This document shows, piece after piece, positions 7,674 to 36,711 of a stretch of DNA of 64,000 nt (the stretch's first letter is position 1; each line of letters starts with the position of its first letter). Below the pieces are notes generated by a model. The model was given only the letters and a program-made list of their open reading frames with translations, was not told the DNA's origin and searched no databases. The stretch comes from a bacterium. GTDB taxonomy: Bacteria; UBA8248; JACPRG01; G963555815. The stretch is from the NCBI GenBank assembly GCA_965249615.1, contig CBDFMI010000006.1:444132-508131 (forward strand), given 5' to 3'. The translations under genes and the position numbers were made by a program.

Positions 7674-9794
7674 GTGGACGGTTTACAGTCAGATACTGGG
7701 AGCCGCTGGTCTCTTCTGTGGCGGGATTGTTTGGGGTGGCTATCGGTCTCAGCAGGTCTGGGTGTATTTGAATCGATCCTTCTGGCCTTCCAAAGACCTG
7801 AGATCAATCCCTTCGCAGTGATCGATCTTTTGGATCTCCTGAGCTCCGCCATCGTTTTAAATTCCTTGATGATTCTCCCAGTCTCAGCGGGCCATTTCCT
7901 CCTGTGTTTTCGCCTTTTGGGAGATCGCGACCGTCGGGCGCAGGGTCGAAACACGTTTTTATTCCACCTCGTTGTGTTCCTCGCGTTGGTGTTCACCATT
8001 TTTATTGGCCGAAGACTCATCTTCACGATCCCTGCAGCCATCGTGATCGCCACGGCCCTTTGGTTCGGACTGAAATATACACCCAGGCGGCTGGCCCGTA
8101 TGTTCGGGCTGGGTGTCACCGTTTTCCTGCTGGCCTTTCTTTCCTACGAATTTGCACGGCCATTTTATCCCCTAAAAAATCTCCGCGAGGTCCGGAACGA
8201 AGACAGCGCACTTCCAAATGTGCTCCTGGTGCTTGTGGATACGTTGCGGGCGGATCGGCTCTCCACATACGGCTATTCCAGGGAGACGTCCCCGTTCATT
8301 TCAAAGCTCGCGGGAGAGGGGGCGAAATTTACGAATTTCTATGCGAACGCGAGTTGGACTCCGCCGGCGACGGCAACGATTTTGACCGGCGTATTTCCCT
8401 CAATCCATGGAATAAACGGAACGTCGTTCCAAAAGAAGGCTCCGGTTAAGACGCTTTGTGAGGTTCTGCGCGGACACGGATACAACACGGCTGCGTTTGT
8501 CGCGAACCCATGGATCGGTGAGCGCAGTGGATTACTCGAAGGATGCGACTATCACAGCCCGATGTGGAACCCCTTTAGGCGAAACCACCAGAGACGTGAT
8601 GTCCCAGATCCATCCGCACCCTCTTTCCTGATCCTCGCCAGCGAGCCGATGCTGGAAAACATTTTCGTCTGGAGAAAGTTTGTTTTTTTGCCACGCATTT
8701 TCGTTTGGAATAGATTTGTTTCTTTGTCCGATAGGGTTGTAACCAGCCTTTTCATAATTGACAGGAAGAAGAGCCACCTCCTCCGCGGGGCATTTCGCCT
8801 AATTCAGGAGGTTGATGGAGATGGGAATGATAACCGAGAGGAGATAGAAAATCGCATTCCTCGTGCGGATGAGTTTACACATGGAGTCTTGAACTACGTC
8901 GATTATGTGGCATCGGTGGAAAACCATGATGGCCAAAGGACGAAATTCTTTATCTATCTGCACTATGTAGAACCGCATAGCCCGTATCAGTCACCTGGGC
9001 GCTATGGTCGCCTGTTTGATCCCCACTATCCGGATGAGCGTGTGACTGAGTATCCGGATCCGTCTGAAAATGGGACCACGCCGGAATTGCCGGATGCGCA
9101 GCTGCACAACCTTCAAGCACAATACGACGGAGAGACCCGTTACTTTGATGACAACTTCCAGTTCCTTTTCTCGAATCTAGAGGAAAGGGGGTTCGTGGAT
9201 AACACGTTGATTGTCTTTGTTTCTGACCATGGAGAGGAATTCTACGAGCATCGGGGATTTGGGCATGGGGGAACAGTCTTTGAGGAAGTGCTCAGAGTGC
9301 CTCCCATTTTATGGTACCCCGGCAGCTTGCCCGGCGGACTTGAGGTGGAGGAGCCGGGATCCCAGGTGGATCTAATGCCAACGATTATGGAGGTCCTCGG
9401 TCTTCCGGGGCCCGGGGATTTCCAGGGAAGAAGCTTGTTGCCGCTCATATATGGGGAGGAGAGCGGGGCGGCCATCTATGGAGAAAGCTCACGCGAGCCC
9501 CCTGGCCGCGAGCTTAGTTCTCATCGGTTTTTAGTTCATGGCCGATATAAATTTATCAACCAGGAAAAACCTGAGACAGAGCATGAAAAATTTCTTTTTG
9601 ACCTTCAGTTGGATCCGAACGAGCAAGAAAACATCTACGGCTCTGAAAAAAAGATAGCGGAAGAAATGGAGTTGCTACTGGAAAAATTCGTCACATTGGT
9701 CGAGAATGACCCCCGGTACTCTGAAAACCCAGAGGCCATCGGAGTTGACCCGGAACTGGAGGAGCGTCTGAAGGCTCTCGGATACGTTGAATGA
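7674..9794 (+). CDS. Membrane-anchored sulfatase-family (alkaline phosphatase superfamily; LtaS/MdoB/EptA-like) transferase/hydrolase, paralog 1
   Basis: N-terminal ~5 TM helices, then LVLVDTLRADRLSTYGYSRETSPFISKLAGEGAKFTNFYANASWTPPATATILTGVFP (PF00884-like metal-binding/nucleophile region) and DHGEEFYEHRGFGHG. Ends ...ERLKALGYVE. Confidence 0.75.
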   Translation: MDGLQSDTGSRWSLLWRDCLGWLSVSAGLGVFESILLAFQRPEINPFAVIDLLDLLSSAIVLNSLMILPVSAGHFLLCFRLLGDRDRRAQGRNTFLFHLVVFLALVFTIFIGRRLIFTIPAAIVIATALWFGLKYTPRRLARMFGLGVTVFLLAFLSYEFARPFYPLKNLREVRNEDSALPNVLLVLVDTLRADRLSTYGYSRETSPFISKLAGEGAKFTNFYANASWTPPATATILTGVFPSIHGINGTSFQKKAPVKTLCEVLRGHGYNTAAFVANPWIGERSGLLEGCDYHSPMWNPFRRNHQRRDVPDPSAPSFLILASEPMLENIFVWRKFVFLPRIFVWNRFVSLSDRVVTSLFIIDRKKSHLLRGAFRLIQEVDGDGNDNREEIENRIPRADEFTHGVLNYVDYVASVENHDGQRTKFFIYLHYVEPHSPYQSPGRYGRLFDPHYPDERVTEYPDPSENGTTPELPDAQLHNLQAQYDGETRYFDDNFQFLFSNLEERGFVDNTLIVFVSDHGEEFYEHRGFGHGGTVFEEVLRVPPILWYPGSLPGGLEVEEPGSQVDLMPTIMEVLGLPGPGDFQGRSLLPLIYGEESGAAIYGESSREPPGRELSSHRFLVHGRYKFINQEKPETEHEKFLFDLQLDPNEQENIYGSEKKIAEEMELLLEKFVTLVENDPRYSENPEAIGVDPELEERLKALGYVE

Positions 9795-9831
9795 AGGTTA
9801 AAGGGCTCGACTCGGACTTGGTGCACACAGC

Positions 9832-12039
9832 ATGAACCGCTGGTCCTTGCTTCGGCGAGATTTTTTGGGATGGCTGGCGGTTTCGGCAGGTCTGGGCGTA
9901 TTTGAATCGGTCTTGCTGGCCTTCCAAAGACCTAAGATCAACCCCTTCGCGGCCATCGATCTGGTCGCTCTTTCGATTTCTGCCGTCCTTTTCAACTCCC
10001 TGATGGTTCTACCCGTTTCACTCGGTCATTTTTTCTTGTATTGGCGGTTTTCTGGAGGCCACGACCATCAGGCGCAGGGCCGAAACGTCTTTTTATTTCA
10101 CCTCGTCGTGTTCCTCGCGGTTGCGTTCATCATTTTTATTGGCCGAAGGCTCATCCTTACGGTTCCTGCAACTATTCTGATGTCCGCGGGCCTTTGGTTC
10201 GGCCTTAGATATCTTTCGACAAGGATTGTTCGGGCATTTTCAGTAGGTGCCGGTATTTTCCTCTTGGCACTTTTTTCGTATGAGTCCCTCCGCTTGCCGC
10301 TCTATATCACAGACCCCGATTATGAACTATGGAAGTCGGAAGTTACGTTATGGGAGGAGGAAGACCCGCGATGTGAGACGCACCTGCGCTTCTCTACTCT
10401 CAACGGCGACCTGGGGTCCCTCGATTCCAGGAACTGTTCCAATTACTACCTGGAGAAGTTCAGGCAGGTAGAAGCGGAGCACCAATCACTGCCGAACGTT
10501 ATTCTGGTTCTTGTCGATACGCTTCGCCCCGATCACCTGTCCACATACGGCTATCATCGAGAGACATCGCCTTTTATTTCGAAGCTGGCGGCGGAGGGGC
10601 TAAAATTTACCAATTTCTATGCGAACGGTGCGTGGACCCCGCCGACGACTTCAACGCTTCTAACCGGCGTTTTTCCCGCAATCCATGGGATATATGAGCC
10701 TGGCGGGCAAAAGAGGGAGACAGTCAAAGTCATTTCTGAGACTCTCCGTGACTACGGCTATAACACAGCCGCCTTTATCGCGAATCCACTGATTACGAAA
10801 AGCACTGGGTTGCTGGACGGATATGATTATTTCTACCGAAAACCCAGGCCGCCGGTGTCGCGGCCGTCGTTGAGGCTCGCGAGCTTCCCCAGTCCGGAGA
10901 ACCTCCTCATATGGGTGAAGTTTCTGTCTCTGTCAGATAAGGTGGTCCAGGCGTTTCGGGGTTTTGATGGGAAGAAAAACGATCTTTTAGTTCAGATATT
11001 TCCCTTCAGCCGTGAATTAGAGCCAGAAAGACAGGAAAGGATACGGGAGGAATTCCGTTTCCCCCCCGCGGAAGTCGACATGGATAAAGAACTCGACTTC
11101 CCCCGGGCGAATGAAATGGCGAACGCGGTGCTGAATTACGTGGATTACGCCTTGGCAGGTCCTGACTTCGACGTTGTGCAAACGAAATTCTTCCTCTTTC
11201 TCCACGACATGGGTCCCCACGATCCTTATAAGTTGCCCACGCCATATGACGTCCTCTTCGACCCTGGGCGCCAGGATAGGCCGGAGGCCGAAGGGGCAGT
11301 CCGGTTTTTGGATGAGTCGCCGCCTGCGTCAGTTCGGGAGAGATTGGCCCATGATTTGCCGCTGTATGACGGAGCAATCCGTTTCTTCGATGATAATTTT
11401 CAGGTGCTCTTTTCGGAACTCAAGGAACGGGGGCTTTTGGACAATACCCTAGTGATCTTGCTGGCAGATCATGGGGAAGAATTCTATGAGCACGGTGAAA
11501 TTGGACATGGGGAGAAGGTCTTTGAGGAAATTGTCAGGATCCCCCTTGTCTTGTGGTATCCAGGGGAATTGCCCTAAGGGGTCGAGGTGAAGGAGTTCGG
11601 GTCGCAGGTGGATATAATACCCACGATCGTGGATGTTCTGGATCTGCCAGTACCAGAGGGGTTGCAGGGAAAGAGCCTCTTGCCCGCGATATCCGGGAGG
11701 GGGCTAGAGAGGGTTGTGTACGGAGAAAACTTGCGTGGTTCGCAGGATTTATCGTCGGGAGATATGTTGCGATTTTTGATCCATGGCCGATATAAACTCA
11801 TCACCATGGGGACACCTAAGACAGTGCGGGAAAAATTGCTCTTTGACCTCCAGTCGGACCCGCATGAGAAAAACAACATCTGCGGGTCTGAGAAAAAGAT
11901 AGCGGAAGAAATGGAATCGCTGCTAGAGGATTTCATCGCATTGGTGAAGAAGGACCCTAGGTATTCTGAAGACCTAGAGGCCGTTGAAGTGGACCCGGAA
12001 CTGCAGAAGCGTCTAAAGGCTCTCGGATACATTGAATGA
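9832..12039 (+). pseudogene. Tandem paralog 2 of the membrane-anchored sulfatase-family protein, interrupted by an in-frame TAA (11575-11577). N-part 9832-11577 (581 aa); C-part restarts at GTG 11587, 6 nt after a GGGG RBS-like run, and runs to 12039.
   Basis: Collinear with paralog 1 over its entire length. Paralog 1 reads WYPGSLPGGLEVEEPGSQVD where paralog 2 reads WYPGELP*GVEVKEFGSQVD; same frame before and after the stop. Ends ...KRLKALGYIE. Confidence 0.6.
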
Positions 12040-12129
12040 GGGTTAAAAAGTTCGCGTCGATCCTGGTGAAAAAGCAGGCTCACCTTTGGCCCGCGATCGG
12101 GTTTTTAGTTTGAGAGGACGTGGGTAAGA

Positions 12130-13806
12130 ATGTCCATCTCCAAGGTCGCCCTCCTGGGTCTTGACGGTGCCACCTTCTACCTCCTTCGCCCCTGGATGGA
12201 GGATGGAACGCTCCCCAATCTTGCGAACCTCCAAAAACGGGGAGCCTCTGGGGTCCTTGCCTCCACCGTTCCACCGGTGACACCGACGGCCTGGTCCACG
12301 TGCATCACGGGGGTAAACCCGGGAAAGCACGGGATATTCGATTTTCGAGATTCTCCCCTCCGTCATCCCGACCGCCCCCTTCTGAGTCTATCCTCTATCC
12401 GCGCCCCCCGGCTCTGGCAGCTCCTGAATGGGGTCGGGAAAAAGACCATCATCCTCAATGTCCCCATGACTTATCCACCTGAGGCGGTGGACGGGTGCAT
12501 GGTCTCGGGGATGATGACACCGGGGCCGGAGGCGAACTACACTTATCCCCTGGAACTCAAGGCGGAGATCCGTCGGGAGATCGGAGAGTACCTGCCGGAT
12601 ATCGACCTGCCCAAGTACGACGCCGAGCGTTATGAGGATGCCCTGGCATACCTGGACTTGATACGGAAAAGTTTTTCCCAGCGGGAAAAACTTTTCTTCC
12701 ACCTCATGGAGAACCGGCCCTGGGATTTCTTCATGGGGGTTTTCATCTTGCCCGACCGGCTCCAACACGTCTTCTGGAAATATCTGGACCCTGAGGCCGG
12801 GCTCTACGGGACCGAGATCGCCCAGCGGCTCCGAGGCTCGGTCATTGACTGCTATCGTCTGATGGATGATTTTATCGGGCGCCTCGTGGAGCGGCTTTCC
12901 TCTGATACCCTCCTTCTTATCATGTCGGACCACGGTTTTGGACCCACCCAGGCCTGGATCAACGTGAGCACCTGGCTGGAGCAGCAGGGTCTCCTCAAGA
13001 TGAGGGGCCAGATGGCCCTGCAGCGACGCCTCTTGTACCATGCTGTGGGGCTGAACGAGGTGGGCTGGCTAAAACGCCTTATCCCGCAGTCCCTTCAGGC
13101 CTTCGCCCGAAAACGGGTGCGTCAGACCAAGTCCGCCTTTCGGACCGACGTTCAGGTCACCCTGGACTGGGATCGGACCCAGGCCTTTTTTCCCAGCATT
13201 CCGGCTCAAGGGATCTACATCAATGTGGAGCGGGACGGAGCGGGGATCGTCCCCCCGGGGGAGGCCTACGAGGCCCTGCGCGCTCGGCTTCGCGATTCGT
13301 TGCTGGCCCTGAAGGACCCGGCGACAGGGGAACGGATCGTGGACGCGGTGCAGTATCGAGAAGAGGTCTACCACGGGCCCGAAACCCCCTACGCCCCGGA
13401 CCTGTTCTTCGTCGCCCGAAATTACAGCTACCTGGGCCGGCCGATGTTTGGGGGCCGAGAGGTCATCCGGTCGCGCGTCCAGGTGCCAAACGGCTTTCAC
13501 CGCCCCGACGGGATCTTCATGGCTCATGGACCTCACGTGGCCTCGGGCCGGGCGGTCACTGGCTCCCACATCGCTGACATCACCCCCACCATCCTCTATA
13601 GTCTCGGCCTCCCCGTCCCAAAAGAGATGGACGGAAAGCCTTTGTCGGAGATCTTTGAGGCGGACTTTCGGCCCGAGAAGAAGGGCCAAGAGGTGAGCGC
13701 TACTGAAAGTCCACAGCCGCCTGAGAGGACTCCCTCTGAGGCTTATCGTCCCGAGGAGGCCTCCGCCATCGAGAAACGCCTTCGGGCCCTGGGGTATGAG
13801 GACTGA
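12130..13806 (+). CDS. Alkaline phosphatase family protein (type I phosphodiesterase/nucleotide pyrophosphatase-like, PF01663-like), AP-1
   Basis: LGLDGATFYLLRPW...STVPPVTPTAWSTCITGVNPGKHGIFDF aligns to the NPP KTFPNHYS.VTG nucleophile-Thr motif; MSDHGFG metal-binding motif. Ends ...EKRLRALGYED. Confidence 0.75.
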   Translation: MSISKVALLGLDGATFYLLRPWMEDGTLPNLANLQKRGASGVLASTVPPVTPTAWSTCITGVNPGKHGIFDFRDSPLRHPDRPLLSLSSIRAPRLWQLLNGVGKKTIILNVPMTYPPEAVDGCMVSGMMTPGPEANYTYPLELKAEIRREIGEYLPDIDLPKYDAERYEDALAYLDLIRKSFSQREKLFFHLMENRPWDFFMGVFILPDRLQHVFWKYLDPEAGLYGTEIAQRLRGSVIDCYRLMDDFIGRLVERLSSDTLLLIMSDHGFGPTQAWINVSTWLEQQGLLKMRGQMALQRRLLYHAVGLNEVGWLKRLIPQSLQAFARKRVRQTKSAFRTDVQVTLDWDRTQAFFPSIPAQGIYINVERDGAGIVPPGEAYEALRARLRDSLLALKDPATGERIVDAVQYREEVYHGPETPYAPDLFFVARNYSYLGRPMFGGREVIRSRVQVPNGFHRPDGIFMAHGPHVASGRAVTGSHIADITPTILYSLGLPVPKEMDGKPLSEIFEADFRPEKKGQEVSATESPQPPERTPSEAYRPEEASAIEKRLRALGYED

Positions 13807-13807
13807 G

Positions 13808-14878
13808 ATGGCAGGTCTGATGACGAAAGTCTCCCATGCCCTTCGAGGGGGTTGGGGGACCCTTTTGAAGGTCGGGGTGAGTGGACTGCTCATCCTTGTC
13901 CTCATTTGGCAGGTGGATTTCGATCGGCTTTGGGTCGTCGTCCGGGATATGTCCCCCGCCTGGCTCCTCCTGGCGCTCTTCTTCAAGTCGGGAGGGGTAT
14001 TCTCGAGCATCCTTCGGTGGCGAGTGCTTCTGAAGGGACAGGACCTCGCCGTCCCTTTAAAAGTCCTCACCTCCTCCTTTCTCGAAGGCCGTTTCTTCGG
14101 CACCTTCACGCCGAGCACCATCGGCCTTGACGCCTATCGAACGTATGACCTGGCCAAGTATTCCGGCCGAACAGCGGCCTCGGTTTCAGTCACATTGGTG
14201 GATAAGGTGATCGGGCTGTTCTCTCTCTCCTTTCTCGTGGCGGTCACCTCATTTGCCGGCGCCCGGTTTGTTGGAGGGCAAGGGGTCTTCTCCCTTCTCC
14301 TCGTCTTCTGTGTCCCCCTCTCCCTGTCCCTGATCTTTCTCCTTTTTCCGGGGCTCCTTGGCCGACTCGTCGACATCAGGAGGTGGAAATCAGGAGGATG
14401 GGCGGAGAAGATGGGCCGTTTCGTCGAAACCGTCACCGTCTATCGCCACCACCGGATCCTCATTGTTCAGGCGGTCGGGCTCGCTATCTTGGTCCACCTT
14501 GGGACCACGCTCATGTATTACGGGACGGCCCTTTCGGTGCAAGCCCCGGTCAGCCCCTTGGACATCCTCTTCGTTGGGCCCCTGATGATCACGGCGACGG
14601 TCATCCCTCTTTCTGTGGCCGGGATCGGGGTCCGTGAGGGGACCTTTGTCTTCTTCCTCACTCGGGTGGGGATCGAGGCGGAGGCCGCCATCCTTCTCGC
14701 CTTTCTCGGGTTCCTCGTAGGCGAGGTCATCAGCCTTTTCGGAGGCTTCATCTTCCTGTTGCGCTCCCACGCGTATCATCGGCGTGAGGGGGGGGTCGCC
14801 GGGGCCGCGGAAAGCGGCCTGGGCAAAGCCGGGGGTGAGGAAGAGGCCGTGGGGACAAAGAAAGAGATTGGCTCTTGA
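13808..14878 (+). CDS. Flippase-like / lysylphosphatidylglycerol-synthase-TM-region family membrane protein (UPF0104). Alternative start ATG 13796, which would overlap the AP-1 stop.
   Basis: About 8 TM helices; N-terminal KVGVSGLLILVLIWQVDFDRLW...LALFFKSGGVFSSILRWRVLL pattern is characteristic of the TIGR00374/PF03706 family, often paired with glycosyltransferases. Confidence 0.5.
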   Translation: MAGLMTKVSHALRGGWGTLLKVGVSGLLILVLIWQVDFDRLWVVVRDMSPAWLLLALFFKSGGVFSSILRWRVLLKGQDLAVPLKVLTSSFLEGRFFGTFTPSTIGLDAYRTYDLAKYSGRTAASVSVTLVDKVIGLFSLSFLVAVTSFAGARFVGGQGVFSLLLVFCVPLSLSLIFLLFPGLLGRLVDIRRWKSGGWAEKMGRFVETVTVYRHHRILIVQAVGLAILVHLGTTLMYYGTALSVQAPVSPLDILFVGPLMITATVIPLSVAGIGVREGTFVFFLTRVGIEAEAAILLAFLGFLVGEVISLFGGFIFLLRSHAYHRREGGVAGAAESGLGKAGGEEEAVGTKKEIGS

Positions 14879-16551
14879 GACGCCTCCTCATCATCGGCGT
14901 CGACGCCGGCACCCTGGACCTCATCGAGCCGTGGGCCCGAGCGGGTGATCTCCCCCATCTGGCCCGTCTCCTCAGGGAGGGGGCCTATGGGCGAGTCCAG
15001 TCGACCCTCCCCCCCTCCACCTATCCCGCCTGGACCTCCTTCATGACCGGTCAGAACCCCGGGCGGCACGGTCTCGTGGACTTCACCTTGAGGGAGGGAG
15101 GGCGCTATGCCGTCAGATTCGCCAGCTCCCGAGACCGGCAAAGTGCTAGTTTGTGGGGGATCCTCAGTGAGGCCGGCCGAAGAGTCGCCGTCCTCGGCAT
15201 GCCCGCCACATACCCCCCTGAAGCCGTCAACGGCTGTATGGTCAGCGGATTCGACTCCCCCCTAGCATGGCGTCTCAACGAGAGCTTTTTTCATCCTCGA
15301 GGGCTCCACCGGGAGGTCATACAGGAGGCGGGACTCTTCCCGCTCTCGGCCTGCCGGGAGGATCGGATCGGAAAGGGCTGGCACGAGCGGGCCTATCGGG
15401 AGATCCTGAAATCACTGGAGCAAGAAACTCGCGTGGCGGAGTACCTCCTGGGCCGGGAAGCGTGGGATTGCTTCTGCGTCGTCTTCGGCCAGACAGATAC
15501 GGTGTGCCATCATTTCTGGAAATTCTTCGACCCATCCTCTCCCCGATATGACTCAGAGGGGGCGAGGCGCTTTGGAGACGCCATCCGTCAAGTCTATCGG
15601 CGTGTGGATTCAGCCATCGGTTCCCTGCTGCAAAAGGCGCCCGATGACGTCACGGTCCTCATCGTCTCGGACCACGGAGCGGGGGGGGCAGGAAACCAGA
15701 TTATTCATTTAAACGCTTGGCTGGCCGGGGAGGGCCATCTGACCTTTCGAAAGGGGGGGGTGGGCTACCGTGCCCTTTCAGCCCTGAAGACGCTGGGCCT
15801 CGGCTATCTCCCGAGGAGGGTTCAAGAACAGGTCTTTCGTGCGGGCGGGGGCAGGCTGGCAAATGGGCTAGAATCCCGCTTGCGTTTCGGCCAGATCGAA
15901 TGGGCGAAGACCCGGGTCTATTCCGAGGAGCTGGGTTATTTCCCCTCTCTTTGGATCAACCTTCGGGGGAGGGAGCCTCAGGGGACGGTGGAGCCCGGCA
16001 GGGAATATGAGGATCTGAGGGACGAGATCATCAGCCGCTTAGAGGTTCTCAGACACCCCGTCACGGGGAGGCGCCTCGTTGAGCGGGCCGTTCGGCGAGA
16101 GGAGGTTTATTGGGGCCCCTTTGTGGACCGGGTTCCTGACATTCTCCTGGAGCTCGCCCTCGACGAGGGCTATAGCTACTCCTGCCTTCGAAGTCCAGCC
16201 CGCTCCCAGGGCCCCTTCGTTCGCTCTCTCCAGAGAGCGGAGGGGGCCAGGGGCCAGGGGATGAACGGCTCACACCGACCAGAGGGGTTTTTCGTTCTCT
16301 CGGGTGAGGGGGTGCGCCCGGGGAAGTGCCGGTTCACCCCCCATCTCATGGACTTTGCCCCGACGCTTCTCGCCCTTTTGGGGATCACCCCTTCGGTGGG
16401 GATGGACGGTCGGGTCTTGGAAGAAGTCCTGAGCGTCCCTGAGCCTCATCCCGTCCCCGTCGCCGTGGCAGGGGAAGAGACGCCTTCGGCGGCCCAGGGG
16501 TGGGAAGGCACGGCCTTCCGGCGGCTTCGGGACCTTGGATACCTGGAATGA
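14875..16551 (+). CDS. Alkaline phosphatase family protein (type I phosphodiesterase/nucleotide pyrophosphatase-like), AP-2; TTG start overlapping the upstream stop
   Basis: IGVDAGTLDLIEPW...STLPPSTYPAWTSFMTGQNPGRHG...VSDHGAGGAG; paralogous to AP-1. Ends ...FRRLRDLGYLE. Confidence 0.72.
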   Translation: MRRLLIIGVDAGTLDLIEPWARAGDLPHLARLLREGAYGRVQSTLPPSTYPAWTSFMTGQNPGRHGLVDFTLREGGRYAVRFASSRDRQSASLWGILSEAGRRVAVLGMPATYPPEAVNGCMVSGFDSPLAWRLNESFFHPRGLHREVIQEAGLFPLSACREDRIGKGWHERAYREILKSLEQETRVAEYLLGREAWDCFCVVFGQTDTVCHHFWKFFDPSSPRYDSEGARRFGDAIRQVYRRVDSAIGSLLQKAPDDVTVLIVSDHGAGGAGNQIIHLNAWLAGEGHLTFRKGGVGYRALSALKTLGLGYLPRRVQEQVFRAGGGRLANGLESRLRFGQIEWAKTRVYSEELGYFPSLWINLRGREPQGTVEPGREYEDLRDEIISRLEVLRHPVTGRRLVERAVRREEVYWGPFVDRVPDILLELALDEGYSYSCLRSPARSQGPFVRSLQRAEGARGQGMNGSHRPEGFFVLSGEGVRPGKCRFTPHLMDFAPTLLALLGITPSVGMDGRVLEEVLSVPEPHPVPVAVAGEETPSAAQGWEGTAFRRLRDLGYLE

Positions 16552-17768
16552 GTGGAGAGAAAGGATCTCGTCGGAAGGTGGCCATGGTGGCCCCCTGTCC
16601 CTTCCCAAGCGTTCAGGGCTCCCAGATCCTGATCCAGGATCTGGCCGGGGGCCTCGAGAGGAGGGGACACGAGGTCCACGTGGTCACTTACCCCTTCGGG
16701 GGCTCCCGTCCGACCGCTTCCTTGCGGATCCACCGGGCTGCCTGTCCCCTTCGTTATGCCGTGGACCACCCGGGCCCTCATCTCTATAAACCTTTTCTGG
16801 ACCTCTTCGTCTTGAGAGAGCTCCTGCGGGTCATCCGCGGGGAGGGGATTGAGCTCCTCCACGCCCACAGCTATGAGGGGTTGCTCATCTCCCTGCTGGC
16901 CGGAAGGTGGACGGGCATTCCCGTCCTCTATCACAGCCACACCCTCCTCGAGGAGGAGCTCCCCACCTATTTTCGGGCCTCGTGGAAGCGCGCCCTGGCG
17001 CATTGGGTGGGCCGACTGCTGGACCGACAGCTTCCGCGTCGGTCAGACCATTGCATTGCCCTTTGTCAGAGAACCCTTGGGGCCTTTCGGGCCTTGGGGG
17101 TGGCGGCGGATCGCTCTTCCTGCATTCGTCCTCTGATCTTTTCCCCCGCCGATAAAACTCCTTCCAGGGTGGATGTAGAGCGCCATCCCTTCATCCTCTA
17201 TACGGGAAACCTCCACCCGTATCAGGATCTCAATCTCCTGATGGAGGGGTTCGCCGAGGTGGCCTCGAGGCTCTCAGAGGTCCGCCTGGTTATCGCCACC
17301 CATTCTGACCCTTCCCATTACGCCGCCCTGGCAAGGGCCCTGGGGCTGTCGGAGCGGGTCTCCTTTCGCGTGAAACCTCCCTTGGATGAAGAGTGGGGTT
17401 TGATGCGGAGGGCCGACCTCCTCGTCTGTCCGCGCCTTCGGTGCTCCGGCTACCCCATCAAGCTTTTGAACTACCTGGCGGCTGGAAGGCCCATCCTCGT
17501 CAGTGAGGGCTCGGCCGAGGGGATTCGCCATGGCGAGAACGGCTACGTTGTCTCTCGGCCTGAACCGAAAACCCTGGCGGAGGGGGCTATTCAAATCCTT
17601 CAGTCCCCCGCCTTGGCAAAACGGTTGGGCGAAGGGGCGGCCCGGACCTACCGGGAGGAGGTGGCGGAAGAGCGCTCCTTGTCGGCCATCGAGGCCATCT
17701 ACACGCAGTGTCTGGGGGAGGAGGGGAACGCGGCCCTCCTCGCCCACCCGAGGGAAATGGCCTCATGA
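16548..17768 (+). CDS. Glycosyltransferase family 4 (group 1)
   Basis: ATGA start/stop overlap with AP-2. N-terminal VAMVAPCPFPSVQGSQILIQDLAGGLERRGHEVHVVT (GT4 N-domain) and C-terminal ...CPRLRCSGYPIKLLNYLAAGRPILVSEGSAEGIRHGENGYVV (E-x7-E-like donor-binding region). Confidence 0.75.
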   Translation: MSGEKGSRRKVAMVAPCPFPSVQGSQILIQDLAGGLERRGHEVHVVTYPFGGSRPTASLRIHRAACPLRYAVDHPGPHLYKPFLDLFVLRELLRVIRGEGIELLHAHSYEGLLISLLAGRWTGIPVLYHSHTLLEEELPTYFRASWKRALAHWVGRLLDRQLPRRSDHCIALCQRTLGAFRALGVAADRSSCIRPLIFSPADKTPSRVDVERHPFILYTGNLHPYQDLNLLMEGFAEVASRLSEVRLVIATHSDPSHYAALARALGLSERVSFRVKPPLDEEWGLMRRADLLVCPRLRCSGYPIKLLNYLAAGRPILVSEGSAEGIRHGENGYVVSRPEPKTLAEGAIQILQSPALAKRLGEGAARTYREEVAEERSLSAIEAIYTQCLGEEGNAALLAHPREMAS

Positions 17769-19168
17769 CCAAGGTCTTGATCCTGGGCCTCGATTGCGCA
17801 GACCCTCGCCTGGTCTTTGACCGCTGGCGACAAGAACTTCCGAACCTCAGACAGCTCATGGAGGCCGGCGTCTGGGGCCCTCTTCAGAGCACCATCCCCC
17901 CCATCACGGTCCCAGCCTGGGCCTGCATGATGACGGGGCGGGACCCTGGAGAGCTAGGGATCTATGGGTTCCGAAACCGGACCTCCTATCAGTACGGGGC
18001 CCTGGGGATCACCAGCTCTCTCTCGGTCCAAGAGGAGACCCTGTGGGACATCCTGGGCCGCACCGGCCGGGAGGTGGTGGTCGTCGGGGTCCCTCCTTCA
18101 TATCCTGTGAAGCCCGTCCGGGGCAGCCTCATCTCCTGCTTTCTCACCCCGAACGCCGAGGTCCCTTTCACGCATCCCCCTGAGCTCAAGGAGGAGGTTC
18201 AGCGTCTTGCCGGCGGGTACCTGTTTGACGTGGAGGGATTCCGGACCGACGACAAGCCCCGGCTCCTCCAACAGATCCACGAGATGACAGAAAAACGCTT
18301 TAGGGTCCTGAAACACCTACTCACCCGAAAGCCGTGGGACTTTTTTATGTCGATGGAGATCGGGGTGGACCGCATGCATCACGGCTTTTGGAAATTTCAC
18401 GATGAGGGCCACATCAAGCACCCCCCGCAAAACCCCTATCAGCACGTCATTCTGGACTATTACCGCTATGTGGACAAGGAGATCGGTGAGCTGGTGGAGT
18501 CCGTCGACGAGGACACGGTCATCATCGTCCTCTCTGATCACGGGGTGAAGAGGATGGAGGGGGGGCTGTGCGTCAACGAATGGCTCATGAAGCAGAAATA
18601 TCTGAGCCTCTCCGCCTACCCCAAGGAGCTCACCTCCCTCAGCAAGCTCGATGTGAACTGGGACCGGACCATGGTCTGGGGAGAAGGGGGGTACTATGGC
18701 CGGATCTATCTCAACGTAAAGGGCCGGGAACCCCAGGGGGTCATCGCCCCAAATGACGTGGAGAAGATCCGGGCAGAGCTGAAACAGGGCATGGAAGAGC
18801 TTTCCGACGAATCAGGGCGCCCCCTCGGGACCCGCGTATTCTATCCCGAGGAGGTCTATCAGGAGGTCCGGAGGATCCCGCCCGATCTCATCGTCTATTT
18901 TGGAGACCTGGACTGGCGCTCTGTCGGGACCGTGGGCCATGGCTCGATCCACACCCGAGAGAATGACACGGGCCCTGACGACGCCAACCACGACACCCAC
19001 GGGATATTCATCATGGCGAAGAAGGCGGACCTCAAAGGGGGCGGGACCGGTCTGGGAACCCGCCTCGACGGTCTCAGCCTCTACGACGTGACCCCCACCG
19101 TCCTGGACCTCCTTGGCCTTCCCATCCCACCCTCGATGCACGGGCGAGTGATTTCTCCTAGAGCCTGA
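17765..19168 (+). CDS. Alkaline phosphatase family protein (type I phosphodiesterase/nucleotide pyrophosphatase-like), AP-3
   Basis: ATGA overlap with the GT4 stop. MTKVLILGLDCADP...STIPPITVPAWACMMTGRDPGELG...LSDHGV. Lacks the C-terminal LGY tag (ends ...HGRVISPRA). Confidence 0.75.
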   Translation: MTKVLILGLDCADPRLVFDRWRQELPNLRQLMEAGVWGPLQSTIPPITVPAWACMMTGRDPGELGIYGFRNRTSYQYGALGITSSLSVQEETLWDILGRTGREVVVVGVPPSYPVKPVRGSLISCFLTPNAEVPFTHPPELKEEVQRLAGGYLFDVEGFRTDDKPRLLQQIHEMTEKRFRVLKHLLTRKPWDFFMSMEIGVDRMHHGFWKFHDEGHIKHPPQNPYQHVILDYYRYVDKEIGELVESVDEDTVIIVLSDHGVKRMEGGLCVNEWLMKQKYLSLSAYPKELTSLSKLDVNWDRTMVWGEGGYYGRIYLNVKGREPQGVIAPNDVEKIRAELKQGMEELSDESGRPLGTRVFYPEEVYQEVRRIPPDLIVYFGDLDWRSVGTVGHGSIHTRENDTGPDDANHDTHGIFIMAKKADLKGGGTGLGTRLDGLSLYDVTPTVLDLLGLPIPPSMHGRVISPRA

Positions 19169-19202
19169 TCGGTCCGCCTGTCTGGCTGAAAGAACCGCCA
19201 GA

Positions 19203-19240
19203 AAAAGCTTGACGGGGAAAAATGGGTGTATATACTCGTT
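19203..19240 (+). promoter_or_regulatory. Sigma70-like promoter, copy A: AAAAGCTTGACGGGGAAAAATGGGTGTATATACTCGTT (TTGACG, 16-17 nt spacer, TATACT)
   Basis: Near-identical (about 34/39 nt) to the element at 35888-35930; sits about 65 nt upstream of the CDS at 19306. Confidence 0.55.
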
Positions 19241-19305
19241 GTATCGGAAGAGACTGAAGGAGACGGAATTTCAGTCCGAGAGCGGGGCCACGCAATGGAG
19301 CAGAA

Positions 19306-20034
19306 ATGGCCCAGGAGGGGGTGAACATGGGCGAGCTTTCTTCCACGGCGAAGCGTGCTGTCTCAGCCTACGGCGGGGCCGATCGCTGGCGAAACGCACG
19401 GGCCATCGAGGCTGTGGTCTCGGCCAACGGCTTGGGCTTCCGCTTGAAGTGGCGGCGTCCTGCCCCAAATGCGGACGTCCGGGTGGAGATAGCGGAACCG
19501 GTCGTCAGGATGGATCTCAAAGATAGCGAGGGGCACATCGGCGTGATGGACCGGGGAGACGTGAGGATTGAGACGTCTTCTGGTAAAGTCGTGGCCTCAC
19601 GGCCGAATCCAGAACACCTGTTTCCCTACGGGCGAAGGGCTTTTTGGTGGGATCGGCTCGACCAGATCTACTTCTCAGGGTACGCCTTGTGGAACTACAT
19701 GACGCTTCCGGCCCTGTTGCTCAGGGACGACATCCAATGGGAGGAGCTCAGAGAGGGGAGCCTTCAGGCGCGTTTTCCCAAACATCTTCCAACACATTGC
19801 GAGGTGCAGCAGTTTCATTTCGAGCCGGCCACAGGGCTCCTGCGCCAGCTCGACTACACGGCGGAGGCCTTCGGAAACTGGGCCAAGGCCGCGAACGTGG
19901 TTTTGGAGCACGGCGAATCGGAGGGGATTCCTTATCCTTCACTGCGTCGGGTTACCCCGCGCCGAGGGGACGGCAGCCCGCGCAAGGGGCCGCTCCTCGT
20001 CGGGATCGAATTCCATCGATTCCGGCTCGTCTAG
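19306..20034 (+). CDS. Hypothetical protein (242 aa), no recognised family
   Basis: ORF with coding-like composition, downstream of a strong promoter-like element; convergent with cysC. Confidence 0.4.
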   Translation: MAQEGVNMGELSSTAKRAVSAYGGADRWRNARAIEAVVSANGLGFRLKWRRPAPNADVRVEIAEPVVRMDLKDSEGHIGVMDRGDVRIETSSGKVVASRPNPEHLFPYGRRAFWWDRLDQIYFSGYALWNYMTLPALLLRDDIQWEELREGSLQARFPKHLPTHCEVQQFHFEPATGLLRQLDYTAEAFGNWAKAANVVLEHGESEGIPYPSLRRVTPRRGDGSPRKGPLLVGIEFHRFRLV

Positions 20035-20042
20035 TCCCCAAT

Positions 20043-20675
20043 CTAGTCGATATATCCCAAGCCCTTCAGTTTGGCCTGGATGGTCTGCTTCTCTTCCTCG
20101 GAATAGACGTAATCGGCGGGCTCGATGTAACCGAATTCTTCCAGCCGAGAGAGAATATGCGCGACAGATTCCTTAACCGACTCTTTGTCCGTCTCGACGG
20201 TTATCTCGGGGTTGAGGGGCTCTTCATAGGGGTCTGAGACCCCCGTAAAATTCTTAATCTCACCCTTAAAAGCTTTCGCGTACATCCCTTTCACGTCCCG
20301 TTCTGCGCAGACCTCAACAGGGCATTTGACGTAGAGCTCCACGAAGCGCCCCACCTCGGCCCTTACGGCGTCTCGGATGGCCCGGTAGGGGGCGATGACC
20401 GCCGCCATGTTGGGAACCCCGTTTCGGGTCAAGAGGTGACAGAGGTATCCCAGGCGAATGATGTGCTTATCGCGGTCCTCTTTGGAGAAGCCGAGGTCGG
20501 CGCTGAGATTGCGGCGCACTTCGTCGCCGTCGAAGACCTCGACGTTCGGAAAACCGCGCTCGTGAAGTTTCTCTCCGAGAAGAACGGCAATCGTGCTTTT
20601 CCCTGAGCAGGGAAGGCCTGTGAACCAGACCGTGAACCCTCTGGGTTTATCTTTGATCACTTTCTCTCTCCTCAA
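20043..20675 (-). CDS. cysC: Adenylylsulfate (APS) kinase with a C-terminal extension carrying the LGY tag
   Basis: RGFTVWFTGLPCSGKSTIA (P-loop), FDGDEVRRNL and the LTRNGV core of APS kinase. The C-terminus reads ...LSRLEEFGYIEPADYVYSEEEKQTIQAKLKGLGYID, i.e. two copies of an L..(F/L)GYI(E/D) element. TTG start overlaps the sat stop by 2 nt. Confidence 0.85.
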   Translation of the reverse strand: MRREKVIKDKPRGFTVWFTGLPCSGKSTIAVLLGEKLHERGFPNVEVFDGDEVRRNLSADLGFSKEDRDKHIIRLGYLCHLLTRNGVPNMAAVIAPYRAIRDAVRAEVGRFVELYVKCPVEVCAERDVKGMYAKAFKGEIKNFTGVSDPYEEPLNPEITVETDKESVKESVAHILSRLEEFGYIEPADYVYSEEEKQTIQAKLKGLGYID

Positions 20676-21850
20676 GAGCCGCCGTCAGAACCCTGTCCTG
20701 CCCGCTCGGCGTAAGCCTGGTGCAAGACCCGGGCGACTTCAGGCCGCATCACCTCCGGGGGTGGAAGCTCCCCGCGGTCTAAAATTTCCCTCACACGAGT
20801 TCCGCTCAGGAAGACGCGCTCTTTCTCCCCGTGGGGGCAGGTCTTGGCCGTTATCATGGCCTCACACCCACGGCAGTAGAAGGCGTGGTCGAAGAAGAGA
20901 GGGGTGATCCCGATCTCCGAGGCCTCGAACTCGTGGAAGATATGGTGGGCGTCATAGGAGCCGTAGTAAGACCCGACGCCGGCGTGGTCCCGGCCCACGA
21001 TGAAATGGGTACAGCCGTAGTTCTTTCGCACGATAGCGTGGAAGATGGCCTCCTTCGGCCCGGCGTAGCGCATGGCCGCCGGAAACACGGAGAGGACCGT
21101 CCGGTTCTTGGGAAAATAGCTCTCCAGGATCACCCTGTAGGAGGCCATCCGGAGGTCCGCCGCCAGGTCGCCCTCCTTGGTGGCCCCGACCAGGGGATGA
21201 AGTAGGAGGCCGTCCACACATTCTAGGGCGCACTTCTGAATGTACTCGTGGGCGCGATGAATGGGGTTTCGGGTCTGGAAGGCCACGACCGTCTTCCACC
21301 CCTTGAGCTGAAAGAGAAGGCGGGTCTCCTTGGGTTCCAGATGGAAGTTGGACCACTCGGTGGCGGCCCCTCTTCGAAGGAGTTTAATAGGCCCCCCGAT
21401 GAGGACAGGGCCTCGCTCGAAGACCTGGCGAACCCCGGGGTGGTCCGAATCTTTTGTCCCGAAGACCTGCTCCACCTCCCTCTCCTTGTCCGGCTTCCAC
21501 TGAGAGGTGACCCGAAGAAGCCCGGTCGTTTCCTTCCCGACCGTGAGGGTAATCTCGTCACCTATGGAAAGGGTCTGGGCCGTCTTCTCATCCACGCCGA
21601 GGACGATGGGAAGCGTCCAGGGAAGGCCCAAGGCGAGGCGCTGGTCTTCCACCACAGCCTGGTAGTCCTCCTCCTCCATGAATCCCCTTAGGGGGCTGTA
21701 GGCCCCCGTCGCGATGAGTTCGAGATCGGAATGCTCCTGGGCCGACAGGGCGATTTTCGGCAGCCCTTGGGCTTTTTTGTCCAAGGCGGGCCGATCCTCC
21801 TCCCGGACCATCCGGTCGACGAGGACCCCGCCGTGCGGTTTGATAGGCAC
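20672..21850 (-). CDS. sat: Sulfate adenylyltransferase (homo-oligomeric ATP sulfurylase)
   Basis: VVAFQTRNPIHRAHEYIQK contains both the QTRN and HRAH motifs; 392 aa; translationally coupled to cysC. Confidence 0.85.
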   Translation of the reverse strand: MPIKPHGGVLVDRMVREEDRPALDKKAQGLPKIALSAQEHSDLELIATGAYSPLRGFMEEEDYQAVVEDQRLALGLPWTLPIVLGVDEKTAQTLSIGDEITLTVGKETTGLLRVTSQWKPDKEREVEQVFGTKDSDHPGVRQVFERGPVLIGGPIKLLRRGAATEWSNFHLEPKETRLLFQLKGWKTVVAFQTRNPIHRAHEYIQKCALECVDGLLLHPLVGATKEGDLAADLRMASYRVILESYFPKNRTVLSVFPAAMRYAGPKEAIFHAIVRKNYGCTHFIVGRDHAGVGSYYGSYDAHHIFHEFEASEIGITPLFFDHAFYCRGCEAMITAKTCPHGEKERVFLSGTRVREILDRGELPPPEVMRPEVARVLHQAYAERAGQGSDGGS

Positions 21851-31830: not shown

Positions 31831-32622
31831 TCACTCTCGATGGGCCATGGGCCGGGCGGCGGGCGGGATATGGCTTTCTACCCATTGGAGCCCGAACCCA
31901 TCCCCGCGAACGGGATACTCCTTTCGGAGGGGATGGCCCTCCCAGTCGTCCGGGAGGAGGATCCGTCTGAGGTCGGGGTGGCCCTCGAAATCAATCCCCA
32001 CCATGTCGTAGGCCTCTCGTTCGAGCCAGTTGGCCGTCCGCCAGATGTCAGACACGGTCGGGGCCGTCTCCGCCTCCCCAAGGCGGACCTTCAGCCGAAG
32101 GCGCCCCCTTCGCTCCAAGCCATAGAGGTGATAGACCACCTCGAAGGGGCGATCCCGGTCCGGGTAGTGGACACCGCAGAGGTCCGACAGGAAATTGAAA
32201 TGGTGTTGGTCTTTGAGGTGAAGACAAAGTGGGTGGATCTGGTCCCGCCGGACGACGACGGTGAGTTCGTCCTCTTTTCCCATGAAGGCGGAGACCTCTT
32301 CCACCCCTTCCCCTGAAAAGGCGCGAATGGCCTTCACCAGGGGGAGTTCCTCGAGATTTTCGCCGGGCTTTTTGTCCGCTTTGACCGGTGGCGGGGCCTT
32401 TTTTTGTTCCGAGGCCGGGGGTTTCTCAGCCGGAGGCGCTTTGGGCTCTTCGGATTCAGCCGTTGGAGGGGAAGCTTCGGGAGCGGCTGACTCTTCCCCC
32501 TCGGGCTTTTTGTCCGCCTTGACCGGCGGTGAGGCCTCTTTTTGTTCCGAGGCCGGGGGTTTCTCAGCCGAGGACGCTTCGGGCTCCTCGGGCTCAGCGG
32601 GGGCGGAGTTCTCTTCGGTCAC
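31831..32622 (-). CDS. nuoC: NADH-quinone oxidoreductase subunit C (30 kDa) with ~95-aa N-terminal Ala/Pro/Glu/Lys-rich tandem-repeat extension; GTG start
   Basis: C-terminal 170 aa are canonical NuoC ([31 protein letters not shown]...[24 protein letters not shown]). The N-terminus has two copies of [10 protein letters not shown](E/K)[10 protein letters not shown]. Confidence 0.8.
32340..32620. repeat. ~140-bp imperfect tandem duplication inside the 5' end of nuoC, encoding the repeated Ala/Pro/Glu/Lys-rich peptide
   Basis: The DNA run ...GGGCTTTTTGTCCGC(T/C)TTGACCGG(T/C)GG(C/T)G(G/A)GGCCT(T)TTTTTGTTCCGAGGCCGGGGGTTTCTCAGCCG... occurs twice in direct succession. Confidence 0.6.
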
Positions 32623-35610: not shown

Positions 35611-35751
35611 GAAGGTTCTGAAGAAGTCTCAGGGGGTCGCCTGAGAATCCACGCCGTCGCTTGCCCGTCTGAGGCAGGCTGGCTATATTGGGTTTCGTTT
35701 AGAGAGGAGATGGAAGTTCTCTTCGTTTTCGCGCGGTAGGGCGGGTCAATT

Positions 35752-35853
35752 ATGGACTTGGATTTTCTCTTCGTCGTCGGCGGGATTATCATCCTGGCGG
35801 GGATGGCCTTTATTGTCCTCCTCGGCATCCTTTGGGTATTTCGCCGGGGATAA
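35752..35853 (+). CDS. Small hydrophobic peptide (33 aa, single TM): MDLDFLFVVGGIIILAGMAFIVLLGILWVFRRG
   Basis: ORF below the track length cutoff; preceded at 35710 by a 9-codon ORF MEVLFVFAR with a similar start. Speculative. Confidence 0.25.
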   Translation: MDLDFLFVVGGIIILAGMAFIVLLGILWVFRRG

Positions 35854-35887
35854 CCCTCACTTTTCCCATCCCACAGAAAAATCCCGC

Positions 35888-35930
35888 AGAAAAAACTTGA
35901 CGAGGCAAAATAGGTGTATATACTCATTTA
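35888..35930 (+). promoter_or_regulatory. Sigma70-like promoter, copy B: AAAAACTTGACGAGGCAAAATAGGTGTATATACTCATT
   Basis: Near-identical to the element at 19203-19240; about 55 nt upstream of the SDR gene. Confidence 0.55.
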
Positions 35931-35982
35931 GATAACACTGGAGACACACGAGCACCTAAACCGATGAGGAGGGGTCGTTGAA

Positions 35983-36711
35983 ATGAGACTAGAGGGGGAA
36001 AGCGTATTGGTCACCGGCGCCAATCGCGGCATAGGCGCAGCACTCGTTAACGCCTTGCTTGGCAAAGGTGTGCGAAAAGTCTATGCCGCCGCAAGGAATC
36101 CCGACAGCCTGCCGGATTTTGGAGATAGCCGTGTTGTACCTATAGCTATCGATATCACTAACACCGAGCAGGTCAAACAAGCGGCCAAGACTGCGGCCGA
36201 TGTCGAGTTACTCATCAACAACGCAGGCGTCGCCGCCTTCACGAGCCTGCTGGATGGTCCCATCGACCTGATAAAGCGAGACATGGACACCAACTACTAC
36301 GGCACTCTGGATATGGTTCGACGCTTTGTGCCCGTGTTGGAAACCAAGACCGATGCGGCAATTGTAAATGTGGTAACCATTGGCGCCTTTGTGAATTTCC
36401 CGATGTTGGGAGGCTATTGCACGTCTAAGTCGGCACTGTTCTCACTTTCCCAGGGAATCCGAATCGAACTCGCGGCTAAGAGCATTGCGATCCACACCGT
36501 TAATCCCGGGCCAATCGACACTGACATGGCCAAGGATTTTCAGGCAGAGAAAACCAGTCCGGAGGTGACCGCAGAGAACACTCTGACAGCGCTGGAAAGC
36601 GGTGAGGTCGATATTTTCCCTGACGCCGGTAGCCAGGGGATGATTAAGGTATGGAAAAGCGACTATCGTGCCCTCGAGCAAATGGTAGCCGAAATGCATA
36701 ACGCGACTTAG
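35983..36711 (+). CDS. SDR family oxidoreductase (short-chain dehydrogenase/reductase)
   Basis: VLVTGANRGIGAAL (TGxxxGxG), NNAG, and YCTSK (YxxxK catalytic); visibly lower G+C than neighbours. Confidence 0.8.
   Translation: MRLEGESVLVTGANRGIGAALVNALLGKGVRKVYAAARNPDSLPDFGDSRVVPIAIDITNTEQVKQAAKTAADVELLINNAGVAAFTSLLDGPIDLIKRDMDTNYYGTLDMVRRFVPVLETKTDAAIVNVVTIGAFVNFPMLGGYCTSKSALFSLSQGIRIELAAKSIAIHTVNPGPIDTDMAKDFQAEKTSPEVTAENTLTALESGEVDIFPDAGSQGMIKVWKSDYRALEQMVAEMHNAT

Follow-up and report, generated by a model that had tools for sequence, protein, structure and literature searches.

Why two unrelated genes in one stretch of bacterial DNA should be preceded by almost the same promoter is the question raised by this locus. 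The stretch analysed, called the window here, comprises 64,000 nucleotides, and the two genes lie 17 kb apart within it. The reading favored here, with a probability of about 0.7, is that the two promoters carry operators for a MosR-like MarR repressor encoded outside the window, that the genes are co-induced by oxidation and that the copies arose by duplication. The two genes would then have nearly the same promoter because each copy overlaps a MarR-type repressor site.

The duplicated block was recovered as a gap-free direct repeat of 53 nt with 83% identity (family D18, 19188-19240 versus 35876-35928), and the likeness between the copies ended at the edges of this ~53-nt block. The original prediction of a near-identical promoter module ahead of two distant genes was borne out and both sequences were found at the positions given, except that the 38-mer of the second copy occupies 35891-35928 and not 35888-35930. 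Near-identity likewise stood, and only the count of about 34 matches in 39 positions was revised, the quoted 38-mers agreeing at 33 of 38 positions (5 differences). Agreement was also said to reach beyond the hexamers; identity does cover the spacer and flanks, and the repeat is longer than had been claimed. The parts of the two blocks are as follows.

19188-19240, plus strand: module 1, the whole promoter-operator block upstream of the LolA-fold gene (D18; also in the close relative L067)
19200-19207, plus strand: A-rich tract AGAAAAAG just 5' of the module-1 -35, UP-element-like (sequence reading)
19209-19214, plus strand: predicted -35 hexamer TTGACG, module 1 (promoter scan)
19231-19236, plus strand: predicted -10 hexamer TATACT within the operator, module 1 (promoter scan)
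35876-35928, plus strand: module 2, the whole promoter-operator block upstream of the SDR gene (D18; identical in relatives L149 and L150)
35889-35895, plus strand: A-rich tract GAAAAAA 5' of the module-2 -35 (sequence reading)
35897-35902, plus strand: predicted -35 hexamer TTGACG, module 2 (promoter scan)
35919-35924, plus strand: predicted -10 hexamer TATACT within the operator, module 2 (promoter scan)

Both modules were scored as sigma70-like by the promoter scan (spacer of 16 nt, 10 of 12 consensus positions matched), and both predicted promoters would be expected to fire. From the usual 6-8 nt distance to the -10, transcription from module 1 should start near 19243; the corresponding start in module 2 is predicted near 35930-35931. 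The module-1 A-tract may act as an UP element, and A-tracts were found in the same position of marR promoters from Methylomirabilota-type loci. The string GGTGTATATACTC occurred exactly twice in the window even with 2 mismatches allowed (0.17 occurrences expected from shuffles), and the 30-nt consensus of both copies matched only these two places. No Rfam family reached its gathering score anywhere in the window, both 5' leaders included, and a known cis-regulatory leader RNA was rejected on this absence of a match.

Several other repeats were observed in the window. A 688-aa pentapeptide-repeat protein (38231-40297, minus strand) is encoded by DNA with a 15/30-nt periodic repeat (family D1), and the three LysM domains of an SLT-LysM transglycosylase (40942-43317) are encoded by three tandem 171-nt units (42105-42617). 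A 97-nt direct repeat at 32364-32598 (88% identity, copies 138 nt apart) lies within the N-terminal extension of a NuoC-like gene (31831-32622, minus strand), upstream of its Complex1_30kDa domain.

The genes downstream of the modules had been called unrelated, and their annotation agrees.

19327-20034, plus strand: target gene 1, a 235-aa conserved protein with a LolA-superfamily fold and no Pfam family (ribosome-binding site AGGAGG at 19313-19318, leader of ~84 nt)
35983-36711, plus strand: target gene 2, a 242-aa SDR (Pfam adh_short, E = 2.9e-35; ribosome-binding site GAGGAGG at 35966-35972, leader of ~52 nt)

Each target is a single gene with convergent neighbors on either side. In target gene 1 the ribosome-binding site lies 8 nt upstream of the ATG, and 215 homologues were found at E ≤ 1e-3. 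Its AlphaFold2 model (pLDDT 96.1) has a half-barrel fold, matched in Foldseek by LolA, LolB, RseB and DUF1329 structures (E down to 5.5e-07, TM ~0.5); no obvious signal peptide was seen on inspection of the sequence, and the model suggests a cytoplasmic binder of a hydrophobic ligand. One orthologue adjoins genes for an HxlR-type regulator, a DinB-family protein and glyoxalases, and SDR orthologues 68-70% identical to the window protein occur in divergent LysR, GST and SDR clusters (L151:2288-4729 and L152:2250-4729); the contexts of both genes' orthologues suit electrophile or oxidant defense. The GC content of the SDR region is 0.55 versus ~0.61, and the SDR of the window lineage is a solitary gene preceded by a MosR-type module; this looks like regulatory rewiring after horizontal acquisition. 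The operator described below was absent from distant orthologues of target gene 1 (L068, L153-L157) and of the SDR (L151, L152), both within 250 nt and locus-wide. Since the distant orthologues of both genes lack the site, the regulon link is lineage-specific.

The surroundings of the targets also include other genes. At least six paralogous sulfatase / type I phosphodiesterase genes form a run at 7674-19168, with segments of 200-300 nt that are 77-79% identical between neighbors (repeat families D3-D5); in a relative, genes for a glycosyltransferase and LPG-synthase-like membrane proteins are interleaved with the run. Genes for ATP sulfurylase and APS kinase lie near it (20043-21850, minus strand). 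A small hydrophobic ORF (35742-35855, 37 aa; 33 aa in relatives) ends 20 nt before module 2 and has its own promoter-like site at 35661-35689.

The original prediction had noted a near-palindrome in the module, GTGTATATACTC, present at 19226-19237 and 35914-35925. This sequence matches the conserved operator of MosR-like MarR regulators, as identified from two sets of loci. One genome per species (185,579 species) was scanned for the pattern CTTGAC-N10-12-GGTGTATATACT, yielding 66 loci, approximately the number expected by chance. Most of these are nonetheless clearly not chance matches, because they have flanking bases in common to which the search pattern was indifferent (ATA on the 5' side of the motif, CCTA on the 3' side) and because a MarR-like ORF of ~150 aa begins directly after the motif in 39. 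The carriers belong to Methylomirabilota, Dadabacteria, Gemmatimonadales, Omnitrophota, Chloroflexota (including the isolate Ktedonosporobacter rubrisoli), Desulfobacterota, Gammaproteobacteria, Acidobacteriota, Spirochaetota, Nitrospirota and Obscuribacterales. As a guard against circularity, 80 metagenome loci were picked by MarR protein similarity alone, independently of the motif (alignment A3). Upstream of marR in these protein-selected loci the exact 12-mer was present in 23 of 79, with one mismatch in a further 21 and with two in 16; by our own calculation, the chance of a match with at most two mismatches in 170 nt is ~0.006. Such regulators are abundant, with at least 597 relatives encoded (597 of the 600 candidate metagenome stretches listed).

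O1 denotes the form of the motif that occurs in the promoter of marR itself, where the -35 is TTGAC and the -10 TATACT. In its true form the palindrome reads GTGTATATACAC; when it also serves as a -10, position 11 is usually T, giving TATACT. The marR start codon falls 6-7 nt past the -10 in 23 of the scan loci and at most 11 nt past it in 32, so close that the marR mRNAs appear to be leaderless. The same arrangement (start 6-7 nt after the -10) was seen in most of L005-L064 and L069-L148, across many phyla. Taken together, more than 12 phyla have this module at the promoter that drives the regulator gene itself, mostly in leaderless form. Most marR promoters combine TTGACA with 17-nt spacing, versus TTGACG and the minority 16-nt spacing in the window copies.

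A 24-nt position weight matrix was built from marR promoters chosen by protein similarity and applied to the window, where it picked out two candidate operators.

19221-19242, plus strand: candidate 22-bp operator AATGG-GTGTATATACTC-GTTGT, site 1 (core palindrome 19226-19237; matrix score 31.0 bits at 19219)
35909-35930, plus strand: candidate 22-bp operator AATAG-GTGTATATACTC-ATTTA, site 2 (core palindrome 35914-35925; matrix score 36.3 bits at 35907)

The next distinct site in the window scored 3.4 bits and the highest of 50 shuffles 20.1 bits; the training sites scored 15.3 to 40.2 bits (median 31.8), placing site 2 above the median. Both sites carry the 12-bp core GTGTATATAC(A/T)C that is near-invariant across 66 protein-selected marR promoters, and in both the core overlaps the TATACT -10 of a sigma70-type promoter whose TTGAC -35 lies 16-17 nt upstream. 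The arms follow the symmetric pattern (A)ATAG ... C(C)TAT(T) in part. At site 2 the left arm matches the consensus AATAG in full, and at site 1 it departs from it at 1 position; the right arms are off-consensus (CTCGTTGT and CTCATTTA versus CTCCTATT), with 3 of 5 positions mismatched at both sites, yet the totals still reach 31-36 bits. Both sites are kept in the close relatives L067, L149 and L150, and site 1 of L067 reads TAGG, which is the consensus left arm. As these relatives are ~97-99% identical in the spacers concerned, conservation of the sites there carries little weight. A shared regulator site overlapping the -10, one of the accounts offered in the original prediction, is supported: the same motif occurs at the regulators' own promoters and downstream of marR genes at more than 100 loci in many phyla, and the window sites score like genuine members.

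A second form of the operator, O2, was found downstream of the regulator gene. The perfect palindrome GTGTATATACAC lies 14-25 nt past the marR stop codon at 97 of 118 loci, with A at position 11 in 99% of cases. It is preceded by a T-run at a fixed -17 to -11 and by 'ATA' at -4 to -2 (loci L002-L148, for example L057:3160-3210, L044 and L081:4400-4450), and is followed by a ribosome-binding site and a cargo gene. The T-run sits where a -35 would be, and the unit contains no canonical promoter; in L057, L111 and L032 the unit recurs before further genes. The T-run was considered as an intrinsic terminator and rejected, as no consistent hairpin was found 5' of it (mean z -0.44). The cargo is variable: a 4Fe-4S/SCP2 protein at 18 loci, an SDR directly after marR at 8 loci, and elsewhere metallo-beta-lactamase-fold proteins, MFS transporters, alpha/beta hydrolases, molybdopterin oxidoreductase, thioesterase and DUF169. 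MarR is the sole constant gene at motif loci and is for that reason the likeliest binder of the palindrome. In the Methylomirabilota-type loci L012, L043, L071, L072, L070 and L077 the same small cargo genes follow marR in differing order, and an insert of ~870 nt before the 4Fe-4S/SCP2 gene is present or absent. Cassette shuffling at operator units was rejected as an account of this, for the cargo is reordered yet each locus has a single downstream palindrome, so that the cargo junctions are not at operator units. The exact operator strings were not found in the searchable literature, where only unrelated primers and similar matches were returned; three features appear to be undescribed there, namely an operator conserved across phyla, a regulator mRNA without a leader, and a second operator preceded by a T-run.

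The regulators linked to the motif were compared with known families, and these tests apply to the motif-linked regulators and not to any protein of the window. They are MarR-type winged-helix proteins that match Pfam MarR and MarR_2, with scores too low for any named NCBIfam model. Among solved structures the nearest is Mycobacterium tuberculosis MosR (4FX0/4FX4, E = 4e-23 to 2e-24), with the N-terminal CxC aligned. The CxC is present in 91 of 118 regulators, the first Cys being invariant (alignment A2), and is located at the N-terminus of helix 1 (Cys10/Cys12 in MosR). In MosR, oxidation leads to a Cys10-Cys12 disulfide and release of DNA, and MosR represses rv1050, whose product has been called a secreted oxidoreductase and also a short-chain dehydrogenase (PMC5823404, PMC11351531).

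A search with 10 MosR-like proteins (tblastn) found no MarR homologue better than E = 0.14 in the 64-kb window, and among the best 120 homologues of a Methylomirabilales MosR-like protein none lay on the source's 881-kb contig or on the 272-kb contig of its relative. Since the window has no MarR homologue and its sites precede a LolA-fold gene and an SDR, the sites are remote targets and not autoregulatory sites. The window modules are in this respect unlike nearly all other O1-type modules, having non-marR genes downstream and leaders of 52-84 nt. From the abundance of the family and the preservation of the sites we infer that this genome encodes a cognate MosR-like regulator, which would bind at the window sites and would respond to oxidation.

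Other explanations of the paired promoters were weighed against this one. The two modules might be orphans or relics in a genome with no cognate repressor, leaving both genes constitutive. That would agree with the lack of a regulator in the window and, among the best 120 homologues, on the source and relative contigs, with the degenerate right arms and with the position of the modules away from any marR, unlike the 39 of 66 genome matches. Against it, the 12-bp core and the left arm were called intact in both copies and in the relatives (site 1 with its one left-arm mismatch); the one substitution in a relative goes towards the consensus, a score of 31-36 bits is what working autoregulatory sites typically reach, and MosR-like regulators are common in many soil and sediment lineages, as the at least 597 of 600 listed stretches attest. 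Constitutive orphans are on balance unlikely. Still less credit is given to the proposal that the palindrome is the operator of a different transcription factor that merely lies near MarR genes. In its favor, the exact motif strings were not found in the searchable literature; against it, MarR is the only gene always adjacent while the cargo varies, the motif brackets marR on both sides, and a MarR dimer is the kind of protein expected on a 12-bp palindrome flanked by AT-rich arms. We consider this very improbable.

The copies are more alike than functional constraint requires, and both precede single genes with convergent neighbors, as might be expected of a mobile-element fragment (the end of a MITE or IS) or a 'mobile promoter' without a regulatory link. 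The window, however, holds two copies only in 64 kb, the likeness spans ~53 nt, and neither copy has terminal inverted repeats, target duplications or a transposase; mobility of this kind is given slightly less credence even than a different factor. The original prediction had itself named a longer MITE or IS element as a finding that would overturn it; the homology proved limited to ~53 nt, and a MITE or IS remnant was rejected for want of flanking inverted repeats and of any longer homology. Chance convergence of two good sigma70 promoters could account for hexamers that are near consensus in both copies, but zero matches to the 30-nt consensus were expected, the identity spans spacer and flanks, and in many phyla the 12-mer goes with one and the same regulator family. 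Convergence can be practically dismissed, and the original argument that the modules did not evolve independently is upheld by that expectation and by the identity in spacer and flanks.

If both modules serve the same MosR-like repressor, their likeness could reflect the shared site, descent from one cassette, or both. The copies agree at 19 of 26 low-information positions, compared with 9.7 ± 4.0 for other O1 modules in the same register, and agreement at 19 or more of the 26 was otherwise reached only by orthologous promoter pairs. This agreement, together with the shared TTGACG and 16-nt spacer, favors duplication of one cassette, and we conclude that both modules probably arose by duplication of a single promoter-operator cassette. 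The original prediction had offered such a duplication as one possibility, and the excess over 9.7 ± 4.0 points to common descent. Shared site and duplication are mutually compatible. The duplicated cassette was possibly derived from a marR promoter. When the window leaders were compared with the 5' end of a marR gene, only a weak, loose resemblance emerged, between the first ~35 nt (CTCGTTGTATCGGAAGAGACTGAAGGAGACGG) of the site-1 leader (19237-19275) and the 30-nt marR leader of L025 (CTCGCAATAACGAATCAAGGGATCTGTGAAGGATGG); it hints that the module was copied from a leadered marR promoter, and no conclusion here depends on it.

In the proposed mechanism, each copy would be a strong sigma70-type promoter with its -10 inside a 22-bp operator, AATAG-GTGTATATAC(T)C-nTTnn. 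A dimer of the reduced repressor on the palindrome would deny RNA polymerase access to the -10, so that both genes stay silent. The repressor would leave the DNA once its N-terminal Cys-x-Cys pair is oxidized, by analogy with MosR of M. tuberculosis, and both genes would come on together. Through duplication of the cassette, two single genes with no relation to each other would have joined the regulon, and in this lineage alone; they are probably switched on jointly under oxidative stress.

The promoter duplicate can be explained in this way, with two unrelated genes most likely in one stress regulon. Read from their sequence, the window sites are new candidate operator sites for a regulator of known type, consistent with established MarR biology, which they leave unchanged. 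The analysis supplies a candidate operator, AATAG-GTGTATATACAC-CTATT, for a large uncharacterised MosR-related branch of MarR present in Methylomirabilota, Chloroflexota, Acidobacteriota, Gemmatimonadota, Desulfobacterota, Gammaproteobacteria and other groups. The motif allows regulons to be predicted from sequence in uncultured lineages, and the module is a compact, probably oxidant-inducible promoter and a possible genetic part. A more far-reaching view, which we regard as doubtful, is that the module is the portable cassette of a widely transferred MosR-like redox regulon, in which O1 copies recruit unlinked genes and the T-run and palindrome form a new modular control element. Were it true, a near-invariant 12-bp operator would serve regulators made from leaderless mRNAs in more than 12 phyla, with interchangeable cargo behind the second operator, the LolA-fold gene and the horizontally acquired SDR would be newly recruited unlinked genes, and the unit of T-run and palindrome would be an unusual promoter or a cassette junction.

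Among known systems, MosR (Rv1049) and rv1050 offer the closest parallel. The comparison is made at the protein level: the motif-linked regulators are the nearest relatives of MosR among solved structures and keep the CxC. The regulator is often followed by an SDR, as in rv1049-rv1050 (PMC11351531), and one of the window targets is also an SDR. The window SDR differs in being 24-30% identical to the marR-adjacent SDRs and in having no regulator gene beside it, and no description was found for MosR of a leaderless marR, of a 12-mer shared across phyla or of a second operator preceded by a T-run. OhrR, a thiol-based peroxide sensor of the MarR family, represses ohrA from a palindrome that overlaps the promoter. 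OhrR and ohrA resemble the arrangement proposed here by analogy, in which a MarR dimer would sit on an AT-rich palindrome over the -10 and be released by cysteine oxidation, and the motif-linked regulators match OhrR models and structures weakly. Their scores are 27-43 bits versus an OhrR family cut-off of 200, and OhrR senses by Cys22 and Cys127' (PMC5823404), whereas the motif-linked regulators carry CxC. In a further difference, no ohr peroxidase was present among the sampled cargo genes.

At Escherichia coli marO, and under MarR-family autoregulation in general, a locus has two operator sites, with operator sequence extending over core elements of the promoter that drives the regulator gene. 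The motif loci likewise have an operator on the regulator's own promoter and two sites; they differ in that the second site lies after the regulator gene and before the cargo and in that the marR mRNA is leaderless, and the window copies differ in being remote target sites. Near-identical promoters ahead of non-homologous genes were reportedly described as 'putative mobile promoters' by van Passel and colleagues in about 2012. The two window blocks resemble such propagated promoters, being near-identical, placed before unrelated genes and alike beyond functional constraint; they differ in that there are two copies only, without mobile-element features, and in that the block is explained by a defined operator.
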